Assembly: GCA_947499615.1 (NCBI GenBank)
Contig: CANMOP010000004.1
Coordinates: 38,501 to 102,500 of the forward strand
Origin: Chloroflexota bacterium
GTDB lineage: Bacteria > Chloroflexota > Dehalococcoidia > UBA2979
Direction: 5' to 3'
DNA: 64,000 nucleotides
Of the stretch, positions 7,812-11,580 are shown piece after piece. Below the pieces are notes generated by a model, which was not told where the DNA came from, ran no database searches, and saw nothing but the letters and a program-made list of their open reading frames with translations. Position numbers and translations under genes: made by a program. How positions within the stretch are numbered: the first letter of the stretch is position 1; each line of letters opens with the position of its first letter.

Positions 7812-8876
7812 TCACCCGACGGCGGCCAGCGCCTCGGCCTGCTCCGCGAGCGCGACGGCGTCGATCAGCCCCTCGATCTCGCCGTCGAGGATGCGCGGCA
7901 TCGAGTGCAGCGTGAGGTTGACGCGGTGATCGGTGACGCGATCCTGCGGGAAGTTGTACGTGCGAATCTTCTCGGAGCGTTCGCCGGTGCCGACCTGCGC
8001 CTTGCGATTGCCGGCCTGCTCCGCAGCCGCTCGCGCGCGCTCCATCTCGTAGATGCGCGCGCGCAGCACGGCCTCGGCCTTTGCGCGGTTCTTGCCTTGC
8101 GAGCGCTCGTCCTGGCACTGCACAACGATGCCCGTGGGCATGTGCGTCATGCGCACGGCGGTGGAGACCTTGTTCACGTTCTGCCCGCCCGCGCCGCCGG
8201 AGTGGAAGATGTCGATGCGCACGTCGTCCCAGTTGATGTCGACATCCACCTCGTCGACCTCGGGCAGTACGGCGACCGTGGCCGTCGAGGTGTGGATGCG
8301 GCCCTGCGCCTCGGTCTCCGGGACGCGCTGCACGCGGTGCACGCCGGACTCGAACTTCAGCCGTGAGTACGCGCCCTGGCCGTGCACCTCGAAGACGATC
8401 TCGCGGTAACCGCCCGCGCCCGCCTCGGCGGTGTCGATGATCTCGGTCTTCCAGTGGCGACGCTCAGCGTAGCGCTGGTACATCTTGAACAGGTCGGCGG
8501 CGAACAGCGCTGCCTCCTCGCCGCCGGTGCCGGCGCGAATCTCGACGATGACGTCGCGGTCGTCGGCGGGGTCCTTCGGCAGCAGGCTGAGCTTCATCTC
8601 TTCTTCGAGGCGCGCCACCTCGAGGGTCAGGCGCTCCTCCTCCTCGCGGCCGAGCGCGCGCACCTCTTCGTCGGCGTCGCGAGCGAGCATCCGCGCCTCA
8701 TCCAGCGCCGTCGAGCTCTCGCGGTACAGCCGATAGGCGCGCACCGTCGCCTCGATGCTGGCGCGCTCGCGCCCGATCTCCTGCACCCGCCGATGGTCGG
8801 CGAGCACCTCGGGATCGGCGAGCAGCCGCTCCAACTCCTCGTAGCGCGCTTCAATGTCAGCTAGTCGTTCGAACAT
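7812..8876 (-). CDS. prfA: peptide chain release factor 1
   Basis: GGQ motif (SGGAGGQNVNKV) and PxT-type RF1 tripeptide region. 354 aa. Confidence 0.95.
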   Translation of the reverse strand: MFERLADIEARYEELERLLADPEVLADHRRVQEIGRERASIEATVRAYRLYRESSTALDEARMLARDADEEVRALGREEEERLTLEVARLEEEMKLSLLPKDPADDRDVIVEIRAGTGGEEAALFAADLFKMYQRYAERRHWKTEIIDTAEAGAGGYREIVFEVHGQGAYSRLKFESGVHRVQRVPETEAQGRIHTSTATVAVLPEVDEVDVDINWDDVRIDIFHSGGAGGQNVNKVSTAVRMTHMPTGIVVQCQDERSQGKNRAKAEAVLRARIYEMERARAAAEQAGNRKAQVGTGERSEKIRTYNFPQDRVTDHRVNLTLHSMPRILDGEIEGLIDAVALAEQAEALAAVG

Positions 8877-8914
8877 GCGCTCAGGATAGCAGGGGGCGCG
8901 GGTTAGGGCTGAAC

Positions 8915-8960
8915 CAAGTGGATTCGAACCCGCCTCAACTCGCTTGATGCAAGGCGGCGG
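8915..8960 (-). other. tRNA-like fragment (canonical T-loop GGTTCGAATCC with disrupted T-stem and no foldable anticodon arm)
   Basis: On the minus strand the sequence reads ...GAGGCGGGTTCGAATCCACTTGG. The 11-mer is the canonical tRNA T-loop, but the flanking stem does not pair. It sits at the left edge of the low-GC island. Confidence 0.3.
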
Positions 8961-9037
8961 ACTTTCTCACCAGCACCCGGTTTGCCTATTCTCCGCGACA
9001 CTTCTGGCGCAGATCGTCCCGTGCGGGGCTTGGCCAT

Positions 9038-10117
9038 ATGGGCACGAGTCGGATGTATAGTTCACCCGTGATCATCGTGCTGGACTCCACCGAGGTCTTC
9101 GAAGACTACGAGCTAGGGAAGCCGTGGATTCGTGGGCTGGCATTGTACGCGAAGGCCGAAAGCGTCCAGGTAATCGTTCCCGAGGTAGTCATTCAAGAGT
9201 TGATGAGGCAAGCCCGAGATGACCTTTGGATCCCCGCGAACAGGGCTTTGAACAGACTGAGGCGAACCACGGGTATCAACTCCGAATTGCCTCCTCAGAC
9301 TGGATTCTTGGCCGATCTTGAAAGCCGCTTCCGGGCGCGCCTAGTTGAAGTCGGCTTCGAGGTTGGAGTTATACCGAACGTTCCACACGCGGAAGTGCTT
9401 TCGCGCATGAACGCGCGCCTACACCCGTTCCGAAGTGGCTCTCCTGATCTCGAGAAGGGCTATAAGGACTATCTCATCTGGAGAACGGCACTGGCAGCCG
9501 GGCACGCGGGTGAAGAAGTCGTCTTAGTATCAAGAAACAACGACTTCGTCCATGGCGGGGCAGGACTGCATCGGGACTTGGCTGACGAAGCTGCATCTTT
9601 AGGTGTGACCGCAAGCGCCTACAAGGGCTCCGAATTCATGCTCGAAACGTTGGTCAGGCCGTGGATGAAGAAAGCCGCTGGGCTTCTTAGGCGTCTTGAG
9701 CGGCATGAGGAGCAGCTGCAAGTTGCCGAGCAACTGTCCAAGTCCGTAAGCGACGTTCTAGGCGGGGTTGAATGGAATCCCGGCGAAATCAACTTGGATC
9801 CGGAGTTGGACACAGTCTACGTCTCAAACTTCGATCCCATGTTGCCCCTTGAGAACATCGACGCATCGGAAATCAGTGACCATGAAGTCTTGCTGAGCTT
9901 CACTGTATCGGGCGACGTTCTTCTTGACGCGTATCCTCCTAAGGAGGTGGCGTACTACCTCAATGATCCACGGGTCTACGTGTCTGACTGGGATTGGAAC
10001 AACCACTGCGTTGCTGCGGAGATCAGTGCGGAGGCGACGTTCGAGATCCGGCTGATTGTGGATCCTGACAGCCTCGAAGTGCAGAAGACGGAAGTTGTAT
10101 CCATTCAGGTGGAATAG
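9038..10117 (+). CDS. PIN-like nuclease domain protein with uncharacterised C-terminal domain (foreign, low-GC)
   Basis: GC is about 52% against about 69% flanking, and AGA/AGG/TTx codons are used. The N-terminus shows alternating beta/alpha PIN topology with conserved acidic residues (VIIVLDS..., VIVPEVVIQEL, DYLIWRTA, VSRNNDF). The C-terminal roughly 190 aa have no recognisable motif. Confidence 0.6.
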   Translation: MGTSRMYSSPVIIVLDSTEVFEDYELGKPWIRGLALYAKAESVQVIVPEVVIQELMRQARDDLWIPANRALNRLRRTTGINSELPPQTGFLADLESRFRARLVEVGFEVGVIPNVPHAEVLSRMNARLHPFRSGSPDLEKGYKDYLIWRTALAAGHAGEEVVLVSRNNDFVHGGAGLHRDLADEAASLGVTASAYKGSEFMLETLVRPWMKKAAGLLRRLERHEEQLQVAEQLSKSVSDVLGGVEWNPGEINLDPELDTVYVSNFDPMLPLENIDASEISDHEVLLSFTVSGDVLLDAYPPKEVAYYLNDPRVYVSDWDWNNHCVAAEISAEATFEIRLIVDPDSLEVQKTEVVSIQVE

Positions 10118-10222
10118 CGACCGCTTCCGCTGGGTGACGAACTCACCAATGTGGCGAGTTCTGGCCGCCGTTATAGGGTCGCATGAGATACACGCGCAAC
10201 GCGTTCGCCTCGGCGGTCGTAC

Positions 10223-10261
10223 GCGAAGGAGGCGCGCGCCGTCATCGCACCCTCCTCCTTC
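10223..10261. other. extended inverted repeat (CGAAGGAGG...CCTCCTTCG) on the right flank of the low-GC island, in the hisS 3' intergenic region
   Basis: Paired arms, 9 bp each, with a 21-nt spacer. Whether it is a transcription terminator or a boundary motif of the inserted segment cannot be decided from sequence. Confidence 0.3.
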
Positions 10262-10320
10262 GATACACGGTGATGCACCGCATTGGGTCGCTGCCGCGAG
10301 CTACGAAAGTGGCATGGCAG

Positions 10321-11580
10321 TCACGTGATCGCGCCCGCCAGCTCATCGAGGCTCACTTCGCGCTGCTCGCCTTCGCCGCTCACCAGCTTGAGCTGCACGA
10401 CGCCGCGGGCGGCCTCGGCGTCACCGATGATGGCGATGTAGCGCGCGCCTGAGGCTTCGGCGGCGCGGAAGTGGGCGCGCATGCTGCGGCCGGGGAAGCC
10501 CGCACGCACGACGAGGCCCGCGGCCCGCGCGCGCCGTGCAGCGTGCATCGCGGCGACGCCGACTGCCTCGCCCAGCGGCGCGACGTACAGGTCGACGGTG
10601 GTCTCGGGCAGGGGCGTGGAGCTCGCACGTGCCTTGAGGTTGAGCATGATGCGCTCGATGCCGGTGGCGAAGCCGACGCCGGGGGTGTGCGGGCCGCCCA
10701 GCAGCTCGATCAGCCCGTCGTAGCGGCCGCCCGCGCCGACGGTGGACTGACCGCCCGCGCCGGCCGGCTCGAACTCCCAGACCGTGCGCGCGTAGTAGTC
10801 GAGGCCGCGCACGATGCGCGGGTCCACCTCGTACGCCACGCCCAGGCCGTCCAGCAGCCCGCGAACCTCGGCGAAGTGGGCCTGGTCGCCCGCGTCGAGG
10901 TAGTCGAGGATGCTCGGCGCGCCCAGCACTGCCGAGTGCGCCGCGTCCTCCTTGGAGTCGAGGATGCGCAGCACGTTCGTCTCGAAGCGCCGCTGCGAGT
11001 CGCGGGAGAGCGTGGCGACGTGCGGGGCGAAGTGCTCGTGCAGCGCTGCGACATAACGATGCCGCGTCTCAGCGGTGCCGATAGAGTTGATGCGCAGTTT
11101 GAGGTCGCCCAACCCCAGTTCCTCGTACAGCGTGCGCTGGAGTTCGATCACCTCGACGTCCGCGGCGGGCGAGGGGTCGCCGATGCACTCGACGCCGAAC
11201 TGCCAGAGCTGGCGGTAGCGGCCGGCCTGCGGGCGGTCGTAACGGAACATCGGGCCGAAGTAGAACAGCCGCACCGGCTGCGGGCGGGAGCCCATGCCGT
11301 GCTCTAGGTAGGCGCGGCAGACCGCCGCCGTACCCTCCGGCCGCAGCGCGAGGTGGTCGCCGCCGCGATCCTCGAAGATGTACATCTCCTTGGAGACGAT
11401 GTCGCTCTCGTCGCCCACGGTACGCAGGAAGACCGAGGAATCCTCGACGATTGGCGTGCCAATCAGGCGGTAGTCGAAGAGGCGGGCGACGCGCTCCGCC
11501 GTGTCCCGGACGAAGCGCCAGAGCTCCTCATCTTCTGGGAGCAGGTCGTGCATGCCTCGGGGTGCGCGTGGACCAGCCAT
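10321..11580 (-). CDS. hisS: histidyl-tRNA synthetase
   Basis: Class II aaRS motifs (FRYDRPQAGRYRQ motif 2, GGGRYDGL motif 3) and N-terminal MHDLLPED. 419 aa. Confidence 0.95.
   Translation of the reverse strand: MAGPRAPRGMHDLLPEDEELWRFVRDTAERVARLFDYRLIGTPIVEDSSVFLRTVGDESDIVSKEMYIFEDRGGDHLALRPEGTAAVCRAYLEHGMGSRPQPVRLFYFGPMFRYDRPQAGRYRQLWQFGVECIGDPSPAADVEVIELQRTLYEELGLGDLKLRINSIGTAETRHRYVAALHEHFAPHVATLSRDSQRRFETNVLRILDSKEDAAHSAVLGAPSILDYLDAGDQAHFAEVRGLLDGLGVAYEVDPRIVRGLDYYARTVWEFEPAGAGGQSTVGAGGRYDGLIELLGGPHTPGVGFATGIERIMLNLKARASSTPLPETTVDLYVAPLGEAVGVAAMHAARRARAAGLVVRAGFPGRSMRAHFRAAEASGARYIAIIGDAEAARGVVQLKLVSGEGEQREVSLDELAGAIT

Follow-up and report, generated by a model that had tools for sequence, protein, structure and literature searches.

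The question raised by this locus is what a single gene of anomalous composition is doing between prfA and hisS, two essential translation genes, and what its product might do. In the 64,000-nucleotide stretch of DNA that was analysed (the window), the prfA-hisS gap spans positions 8877-10320 (1,444 bp) and contains one intact open reading frame. The gap is bordered by the start codon of prfA (7812-8876, minus strand; NCBIfam equivalog, 506 bits) and the stop codon of hisS (10321-11580, minus strand; NCBIfam equivalog, 448 bits), and prmC was identified as a further neighbour in the same way (218 bits). The reading frame (9038-10117 including the stop codon, plus strand) encodes a two-domain, 359-aa protein of the PIN_12/DUF4935 family, and only 364 bp of non-coding DNA lie beside it within the gap. 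An independent Logan assembly of SRR7054680 contains the identical gene. The gene is monocistronic, as prfA is divergent, hisS is convergent and no neighbour is co-oriented. A reading made earlier from the sequence only had described it as solitary, and a survey of open reading frames that included the spacers agrees: no partner gene, antitoxin or integrase was found among the reading frames of the prfA-hisS locus, and no defence genes lie next to it. When spacer reading frames of at least 20 aa were considered as antitoxin candidates, the only one was a 44-aa basic frame (8903-9037, minus strand), antisense/divergent to the PIN_12 gene and judged spurious.

The composition of the gene sets it apart from its surroundings. 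Its GC content is 55.3%, as compared with a window mean of 68.2%, and a scan of the 64 kb in segments of 1,080 bp (SD 2.5%) identified it as the lowest-GC stretch, approximately 5 SD under the mean; the left and right spacers are at 62.7% and 64.0%, respectively. GC3 is 65% vs. 87-91% in four neighbouring genes, codons ending in A or T make up 35% vs. 11%, and AGA/AGG account for 8 of 23 arginine codons (35%) vs. 2 of 183 in the neighbours (1%). A CAI-like index is likewise low, at 0.33 vs. 0.68-0.75. The low-GC island and the rare AGA/AGG and A/T-ending codons noted in the sequence-only reading are therefore real, although the GC value is 55.3% and not the ~52% it had given.

Relatives of the host provide empty sites. 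In six relatives with the same relA-hisS-prfA-prmC order, hisS lies directly upstream of prfA with no PIN gene between them, and the intervening spacers measure -8, 37, 37, 71, 71 and 412 bp. Because these syntenic loci lack the gene, the window gene is an insertion, as had been proposed. Across all prfA loci of relatives, these six included, a PIN_12 gene was missing at 160 of 160. In L001, the closest relative by prfA (70%), the neighbourhood is rearranged and unusable as an empty site, and a metagenome scan recovered no closer host relatives above 59% prfA identity; sequence comparable to the right spacer was not present after hisS in the relatives. The hisS-prfA junction of an uncultured high-GC Chloroflexota bacterium (Dehalococcoidia/Tepidiformaceae-like) has taken up ~1.3-1.4 kb of foreign DNA. 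The earlier description of a "recent foreign acquisition" holds as to "foreign", which composition, codon usage and synteny all support, but not as to "recent". Since 12 of 13 family genes examined also have a GC content below that of their own flanks, GC alone cannot date the transfer.

The N-terminal domain belongs to a described nuclease family. Residues 13-170 (9074-9547, plus strand) match Pfam PIN_12 (PF16289, formerly DUF4935) over positions 1-172 of 172, scoring 52.2 bits where the curated gathering threshold is 32 (E 1.3e-13), and the precomputed Pfam label of the identical database protein is also PF16289. HMMER detected 1,251 relatives with alignments over residues ~13-356, and most of the top 150 matches are 350-380 aa long. 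D16 (9083-9085), E54 (9197-9199) and D144 (9467-9469) are invariant in a 58-sequence alignment, N167/D169 (9536-9544) are at least 90% conserved, and all are present in the window protein. These residues fall within the motifs LDS, PEVV..E, DYLIW and RNNDF, respectively, which had been singled out from the sequence as the acidic signature of a PIN fold. An AlphaFold (AF2) model of high confidence (pLDDT 94.5, pTM 0.90) contains two domains, of which the PIN part is VapC-like; the best structural neighbour of this domain, 1y82, is common to the window protein and to Cosus, a family member discussed below. With the profile match above threshold, the D16/E54/D144/D169 tetrad intact and a VapC-like model, the assignment of the N-terminus as a PIN nuclease domain is upheld.

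The same family was described by Matelska et al. (2017, NAR 45:6995; PMC5499597) as proteins of ~350-380 aa. Their N-terminal PIN domain is of the VapC group and has 4-5 conserved acids, with strand 2 followed by a long helical insert and strand 3 by two helices; the C-terminal alpha/beta region of ~180 aa is without a sequence relative of known structure. The genes were usually monocistronic, and their function was then unknown (PMC5499597). The window protein resembles this description in full: the profile matches end to end, the two-region architecture and monocistronic layout are the same, and a helical insert of 57 residues (49-105) follows beta-2. It differs in being very divergent, with a best identity of about 30% (no higher than 30-32%) among 1.8 billion representative proteins, and in its host, as Chloroflexota were absent from the phyla listed in 2017. 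A word-indexed protein search returned only the window protein itself. The window protein is, by sequence, a very divergent member of the known PIN_12/DUF4935 family, and what had appeared to be a new fusion of a PIN domain to an unknown domain is the standard architecture of a family with over 1,000 relatives. The compositional anomaly can therefore be filed under a described family and no longer counts as a candidate new system. No match for the window protein came from NCBIfam, PHROGs or PADLOC (2023); nothing can be read from the PADLOC negative, since Cosus and other family members, used as controls, were missed too.

Downstream of the nuclease domain, the AF2 model assigns residues 171-251 (9548-9790, plus strand) to beta-5 and a helical linker, and residues 252-359 (9791-10114, plus strand) to an all-beta sheet domain. 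The long helix 223-241 of the linker packs on the C-terminal sheet in the model, and together they would form an alpha+beta roll of the cystatin/latexin/NTF2-like type. Conserved family residues in this domain are K302 and a D-W-D-W-N-x-H motif (317-323). The sequence-only reading had found a beta-rich C-terminus with no recognisable motif, and searches agree that it has no recognisable sequence family: the domain alone had no match in Pfam, the family profile matched nothing meaningful among PDB sequences, and Foldseek found no PDB match at E<1e-3. Cystatin/monellin/latexin-like and NTF2-like rolls are 1-13% identical to the domain and have no sequence motifs in common with it, and a search of the window domain for protease-inhibitor loops identified none. 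The likeness seen in the model concerns the fold and does not speak for homology or inhibitor function; even so, a confident model would now place the C-terminal region of this family in the cystatin/NTF2-like roll class.

Cosus (Brc24) provides the functional reference point. It was published as a single-gene phage-defence integron cassette (bioRxiv 10.1101/2024.07.02.601719), and was recovered here as ALG87191.1 on the IncC plasmid pKAZ2 (KR827391.1), a 382-aa protein with a PIN_12 match at E 2.4e-36. Alone, the Cosus gene confers complete resistance to T7, and defence drops more than 1e5-fold in a D14A mutant; mutagenesis identified T12, D14 and D96 as needed for defence, whereas the other PIN acids were not listed among the strong-loss mutants (10.1101/2024.07.02.601719). 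A hexameric assembly is predicted for Cosus. Cosus and the window protein are only 16.9% identical (~17%), and pairwise BLASTP gave no signal. Comparison of the Cosus subfamily with the window family nevertheless aligned 247 collinear columns (hhalign probability 94.7%, E 5.9e-8), including the linker, which is collinear with Cosus residues ~186-250; the family profile against the single Cosus sequence gave a probability of 89.4%, and the C-terminal domains alone produced a weak match (P 1.4e-3, probability 18%).

Both proteins are encoded by lone genes, with self-sufficiency established for Cosus, and both consist of a PIN_12 domain, a helical linker and a beta-rich C-terminus (382 vs. 359 aa). 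An invariant D, E and D and a P-F motif are common to both: D14, E52, D153 and P140-F141 of Cosus correspond to D16, E54, D144 and P130-F131 of the window protein. The fourth acid is shifted, as Cosus D177 aligns with N167 and D169 with Cosus N182. Of the residues needed for Cosus defence, D14 is kept as D16, whereas T12 and D96 are replaced by V14 and F90 and are not conserved in the window-type subfamily. The genes also differ in setting, since Cosus is an integron cassette from Gammaproteobacteria and the window copy, from Chloroflexota, has no attC. With only the catalytic core conserved between the two, this very divergent, naturally solitary homolog should be a useful comparator for identifying which features of Cosus are essential.

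The neighbourhoods of other homologs point in the same functional direction, although the survey, of ~11 contexts, is anecdotal and has no statistical standing. PIN_12 members adjoin Hachiman, AbiH, Lamassu-like, retron-like and ICE genes. The contexts include an integrase/DUF3987 element with RT, PIF1 helicase, WYL and AAA_15/21; Imm63 and DUF4062; NNH5/PIN-TPR and Schlafen-AlbA_2; DUF4238, CTD7-MC3-LmuB_C and Upx-like genes on an ICE; HEPN_AbiU2; Hachiman HamA/HamB on a conjugative transposon; and AbiH. The closest relatives of the window gene (L171 and L174) are, like it, solitary low-GC genes among housekeeping genes; single-gene inserts in such positions are a recurring form of this nearest branch of the family.

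Since Cosus acts against T7 and homologs lie beside defence genes, defence is the best reading of the window gene. On balance we favour, by analogy, defence against phages or mobile elements by a Cosus-type nuclease that needs no second gene as the likeliest function of its product; and because so distant a member as Cosus blocks T7 alone, this would be an ordinary defence nuclease and not a new system. The earlier guess of a single-gene antiphage system or solitary toxin agrees with this evidence at the level of the family, and for the window copy it holds by analogy. The known range of PIN_12/DUF4935 now extends to an uncultured high-GC Chloroflexota lineage, where the protein would presumably provide Cosus-like single-gene defence. 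That the window copy acts as a nuclease and in defence, what it cleaves, how it is switched on and what its C-terminal domain does, we infer as follows. The protein would be a metal-dependent endonuclease of the VapC group with D16, E54, D144 and D169 as predicted catalytic residues; its PIN site would most probably cleave RNA or single-stranded/structured nucleic acid, belonging either to the invader or to the infected cell; and the C-terminal domain may hold the enzyme, up to infection, in a silent, oligomeric or target-specific state. A bolder and rather doubtful extension is that the C-terminal roll, with K302 and the D-W-D-W-N-x-H patch, is a built-in sensor/autoinhibitor, making PIN_12 proteins single-chain "toxin plus cis-antitoxin" immune nucleases in which the PIN site is freed or assembled once the roll has bound a nucleic acid or a phage protein. 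In that case the window protein would stand for a deep, previously unsampled Chloroflexota branch of the mechanism, and genes of this kind would spread as naked single-gene mini-islands (cf. L171 and L174), following a tRNA-linked path with hardly any trace left behind.

The alternative that survives best, though we regard it as unlikely, is that the gene encodes a solitary PIN toxin or a selfish addiction-type product, a VapC-like RNase whose antitoxin is missing, located elsewhere or supplied in cis by the C-terminal domain, and which acts to arrest growth or to maintain an element instead of defending against phage. The locus offers little for such a function, as no antitoxin-like gene lies upstream of it or overlaps it, the small frame at 8903-9037 being divergent and apparently spurious, and a single-gene insert leaves an addiction module nothing to stabilise. 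VapC toxins of type II VapBC modules (~130-150 aa) are also smaller, the protein being ~2.5 times their size and differing from them by an extra C-terminal domain, the 57-residue helical insert and the lack of a VapB-like antitoxin gene or operon, and its two-domain monocistronic layout is conserved over more than 1,000 proteins. In mechanism, a solitary toxin overlaps with abortive-infection defence. A VapBC type II module as such was rejected, given the lack of an adjacent antitoxin gene and a 359-aa protein with an extra domain.

The edges of the insert bear on its origin. The left part of the inserted DNA (8909-9037, 60.5% GC) precedes the PIN_12 gene and presumably carries its promoter and 5' UTR. 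It includes a tRNA T-arm-like fragment (8911-8936, minus strand), in which the T-loop 11-mer GGTTCGAATCC is exact at 8920-8930 (minus strand) and has its sole other exact copy in the window in tRNA-Val. The T-arm fragment reported earlier is thus partly sustained: the T-loop is perfect, but the T-stem is broken and no tRNA can be called. Neither ARAGORN at default settings nor Rfam (E<=10) found a tRNA or tmRNA at the left edge, and relaxing ARAGORN to 80% stringency yielded sub-threshold, implausible guesses only. On the right, the spacer between the convergent 3' ends of the PIN_12 gene and hisS (10118-10320, 64% GC) contains a hairpin, CGAAGGAGG...CCTCCTTCG (10224-10262). What had been taken for a long inverted repeat amounts to a 9-bp perfect stem within 16-nt arms that are 81% complementary, and the spacer does not fold significantly better than shuffled sequences (z = -1.36). 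The tRNA fragment and inverted repeat therefore mark the boundaries of the island weakly. No direct repeats of at least 8 bp between the edges and no terminal inverted repeats were found, and a search for R''/L''...L'/R' sites with RYYYAAC and GTTRRRY cores found no attC core or inverse core in either spacer, with matches only inside the reading frame. Without direct repeats, attC sites or a recombinase, the description of the locus as a typical integration hotspot is unsupported. An integron gene cassette was rejected as there is no attC site downstream of the reading frame, as was a tRNA-targeting genomic island, there being no tRNA within 7 kb, direct repeats or recombinase reading frame.

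Less likely again is an origin by decay, in which a larger integrative element (for example a prophage, an ICE or a tRNA-targeting island) lost its other genes by deletion and the insert is all that remains, with the PIN_12 gene as surviving cargo. The exact T-loop 11-mer at the left edge is consistent with such an origin, as are the nearest relative, whose gene in L171 lies 54 bp from an intact tRNA-Ala, and the other family members that are cargo of integrase-bearing elements and ICEs. Compared with the arrangement in L171, however, the strand of the T-loop piece is reversed, and no tRNA can be recognised in it; the 364 bp of non-coding DNA contained no pseudogene fragments, integrase, direct repeats of at least 8 bp or attC cores. 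The family is also almost absent from phage genomes: tblastn against 50,697 records gave no match for the window protein and one weak match for Cosus. As a statement on where the insert came from, this alternative would fit any function.

We consider it very improbable that the protein is a native housekeeping or regulatory RNA-processing nuclease whose odd composition stems from sequence constraints acting across the family instead of from horizontal transfer, given the empty prfA loci of relatives, a nearest homolog that is only 30% identical, and a family that is patchy by taxon with members on plasmids, integrons and ICEs; the excess of AGA/AGG arginine codons is hard to explain by constraints on the protein. 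A decaying, non-functional reading frame, a dead passenger gene, is scarcely credible either: consensus scans revealed no recognisable promoter or terminator, but they are not calibrated for Chloroflexota, whereas the frame runs unbroken for 359 aa, fits the family profile along its whole length, keeps every catalytic and structural invariant and gives a very confident AF2 model.

As to transcription signals, consensus scans, uncalibrated for Chloroflexota as they are, found no sigma-70 match upstream of the PIN_12 gene and no intrinsic terminators; the hairpin at 10224-10262 is a possible bidirectional terminator, though without a T-run. The prfA-proximal spacer (8877-8908, minus strand) is host-like at 72% GC and, to judge from its sequence, probably native. 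A -10-like element, TATCCT, ends 8 nt before the prfA ATG and may serve as part of a promoter. The spacer resembles the ends of the 37-bp hisS-prfA spacers in two relatives (L025 and L040), which carry AATAG-type hexamers 7-9 nt before the ATG.

Positions 8877-10320 coincide exactly with the space that separates the prfA start (7812-8876, - strand) from the hisS stop (10321-11580, - strand). This gap consists of noncoding DNA and one gene, a 359-aa PIN_12 ORF (9038-10117, + strand) that is the sole long ORF of the gap; prmC lies past prfA and relA/spoT past hisS. ORF calling, GC measurement and codon analysis showed that the low-GC, single-gene gap described in the sequence-only reading is real, although the GC content given there (about 52%) was too low. 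The ORF measured 55.3% GC against a window mean of 68.2%; no other 1,080-bp stretch in the whole 64 kb is as low in GC, and the ORF lies ~5 SD under the mean of such windows. Codon usage differed from that of four neighbouring genes in GC3 (65% vs. 87-91%), A/T-ending codons (35% vs. 11%), AGA/AGG among arginine codons (8/23 vs. 2/183) and a CAI-like index for which the neighbours served as reference set (0.33 vs. 0.68-0.75). An independent Logan assembly of SRR7054680 contains one contig that is 100% identical to window positions 8323-10677, so the arrangement does not stem from a chimeric assembly of the window. A weak Rfam match to YrlA (Y RNA-like) inside the hisS coding region (10345-10457, - strand; 22.6 bits vs. 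a gathering score of 69, E 0.07) is almost certainly due to chance.

The host is an uncultured member of the Chloroflexota, of the Dehalococcoidia/Tepidiformaceae type, and its closest prfA matches are 70% identical in GTDB (one genome per species) and 59% identical in JGI metagenomes. Six of 160 fetched prfA loci have the gene order of the window: hisS directly precedes prfA, and both are encoded on one strand. These six are distant from the host (prfA 56-58% identical), and four of them have relA beyond hisS. The spacer from hisS stop to prfA start, 1,444 bp in the window, measures 37 bp in L025 and L040, 71 bp in L097 and L144, -8 bp in L103 and 412 bp in L104, and none of the six contains a PIN_12 gene. 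As the final ~30 nt ahead of prfA are host-like (72% GC) and similar to the ends of the L025 and L040 spacers, the native part of the spacer is short and the inserted DNA amounts to ~1.3-1.4 kb. We consider it highly probable that the PIN_12 gene was inserted horizontally. At 12 of 13 family loci (L082-L088, L170-L176), among them L171, L174 and L175, which carry the three closest relatives, the GC content of the PIN_12 gene falls 0.5-14 points below that of the flanking DNA. AT bias relative to the host looks like a family-wide trait, and GC alone is a poor clock for the insertion. At L001, the nearest sampled prfA relative (70%), the neighbourhood is rearranged, with hisS not nearby and a SpoU-family rRNA methylase (L001:7085-7927) between prfA and prmC, indicating that gene order around prfA is fluid in the host clade. 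Three of the syntenic spacers (L097:3850-3920, L104:4583-4660 and L144:2463-2533) have in common an extended -10-like box, TGnTAnAAT, with a GC-rich hairpin after it and a U-run on one of the three; the element could be a promoter, leader or attenuator conserved ahead of prfA.

The left edge of the insert had been described as a broken tRNA-like T-arm and the right edge as a long inverted repeat. At 8920-8930 (- strand) the sequence matches the T-loop consensus exactly (GGTTCGAATCC); the window contains just one further exact copy, within tRNA-Val. The flanking T-stem sequences are not complementary, however, and no tRNA was called in this region by ARAGORN (default settings) or Rfam (E<=10). 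The gene for P0002, the nearest relative (30% identity; L171), is flanked by an intact tRNA-Ala(GGC) 54 bp upstream and by crcB 12 bp downstream, which makes a tRNA-linked history conceivable; the two loci differ in orientation, however, and tRNA adjacency occurs at only 1 of 12 family loci. On the right, the inverted repeat reduced to a hairpin with a 9-bp perfect stem and no T-run (10224-10262), located where the PIN_12 gene and hisS converge at their 3' ends, in a spacer that overall folds no better than shuffles. Searches found no recombinase gene at the insert, the spacers were free of attC core sites, and no direct repeats of at least 8 bp joined the two edges. The suggestion of an integration hotspot is unsupported, varied spacer length among relatives being its sole backing. 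A very basic 44-aa ORF (8903-9037, - strand), back-to-back with the PIN_12 start codon through a shared CATATG, extends across the T-loop-like element and stops 27 nt short of prfA; it appears to be spurious.

Residues 13-170 matched all 172 profile positions of PIN_12 (PF16289, formerly DUF4935; Pfam, 52 bits vs. a cutoff of 32), and membership in this family is virtually certain. A word-indexed search of 5.8 billion clusters returned only the window protein itself, and exhaustive HMMER comparison with 1.84 billion representatives yielded 1,251 relatives at E<=1e-3 and 261 at E<=1e-10. Nearly all top HMMER matches are 350-380 aa long, with alignments spanning roughly residues 13-356 (24-32% identity); to judge from these alignments, the PIN plus C-terminal arrangement is the standard layout of a large family and not a new fusion. 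DUF4935 proteins were described as ~350 aa, usually monocistronic, with an N-terminal VapC-group PIN-like domain in which acidic residues are conserved and strand 2 is followed by a helical insert, and a C-terminal alpha/beta part without a relative of known structure; their function was then unknown (Matelska et al. 2017, PMC5499597). Across 58 aligned sequences, D16, E54, P130, D144 and W148 were invariant, G141-Y142-R143, N167, D169, F170, K302 and N321 were at least 90% conserved, and the window protein had every catalytic residue. An AlphaFold2 model built from the family alignment was very confident (mean pLDDT 94.5, pTM 0.90); neither a Pfam family nor a sequence relative in the PDB was identified for the C-terminal domain.

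Defence, conflict or mobile-element genes neighbour the family in 8 of ~11 independent contexts: an integrase/DUF3987 element with reverse transcriptase, PIF1 helicase, WYL and AAA_15/21; HTH-Imm63 with DUF4062; NNH5/PIN-TPR-GreABC, DUF4062 and Schlafen-AlbA_2; DUF4238, CTD7-MC3-LmuB_C and Upx-like genes on a relaxase-bearing ICE; Lsr2 with an RHS toxin; HEPN_AbiU2; Hachiman HamA/HamB on a conjugative transposon; and AbiH. Homologs occur on three Rhodococcus plasmids and are essentially absent from phage genomes. The closest relatives resemble the window copy in being solitary low-GC genes amid housekeeping or metabolic genes (P0002, L171:51-1616, 57.9% vs. ~71% GC in flanks; P0003, L174, among metabolic genes, 59.5% vs. 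69.9%).

A full-text literature search for DUF4935/PIN_12 led to Cosus, the product of the single-gene integron cassette brc24, which contains a PIN12 domain and confers complete T7 resistance at high and low MOI with an 11% fitness cost; T12A, D14A and D96A each lost >1e5-fold of protection ("Mobile Integrons Encode Phage Defense Systems", 10.1101/2024.07.02.601719). The cassette was taken from the preprint supplement and an error-free gene from plasmid pKAZ2 (KR827391.1, ALG87191.1, 382 aa), whose product is a strong PIN_12 match (E 2.4e-36). Pairwise BLASTP between Cosus and the window protein gave no match. The window-type family profile matched the Cosus sequence at 89% probability and the Cosus-subfamily profile at 94.7% (E 5.9e-8, 247 collinear columns), pairing window residues 39-297 with Cosus 37-302. 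In a joint alignment, Cosus D14/E52/P140/D153 correspond to window D16/E54/P130/D144, positions that vary little or not at all across both groups, whereas the fourth acid is offset and T12 and D96 are not conserved. The window protein is unusually divergent, yet already covered by a described family and one experimentally validated relative; the sequence-only reading was essentially right, though of a known family. Some close Cosus homologs (P0276, P0280, P0286 and P0293; 462-467 aa) have an N-terminal cold-shock domain (PF00313) fused to PIN_12, a domain pairing consistent with a single-stranded nucleic-acid substrate.

Because of one distant homolog, Cosus, and anecdotal neighbourhoods, defence is the best-supported reading of the window protein's function, and we lean slightly towards it. 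The protein would act as a metal-dependent PIN endonuclease on RNA or on single-stranded or structured nucleic acid, with the C-terminal roll domain, and possibly oligomerisation, gating or targeting it. The main rival, a solitary toxin-like or selfish PIN nuclease, is unlikely; it overlaps mechanistically with abortive infection. Somewhat more doubtful still is that the insert is a remnant of a larger element, a claim about origin that is compatible with defence or toxin function; relatives do reside on such elements, and the insert itself holds one gene. A native housekeeping RNase, at odds with the syntenic relatives, and a dead gene, at odds with the intact catalytic residues, are both very unlikely.

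In L088:4221-9095, L173:4525-10230 and L176:61-3735, the PIN_12 gene is tightly packed behind defence genes: 13 bp past the CTD7-MC3-LmuB_C cluster in one, 22 bp past Hachiman HamB and overlapped by a DUF3800 gene in another, and 51 bp past AbiH. It may sometimes be part of multi-gene systems. A DUF4062 gene adjoins it in two unrelated Bacteroidota genomes, once on each side (L086:9250-10443 and L087:6882-7778), a possible recurrent association.
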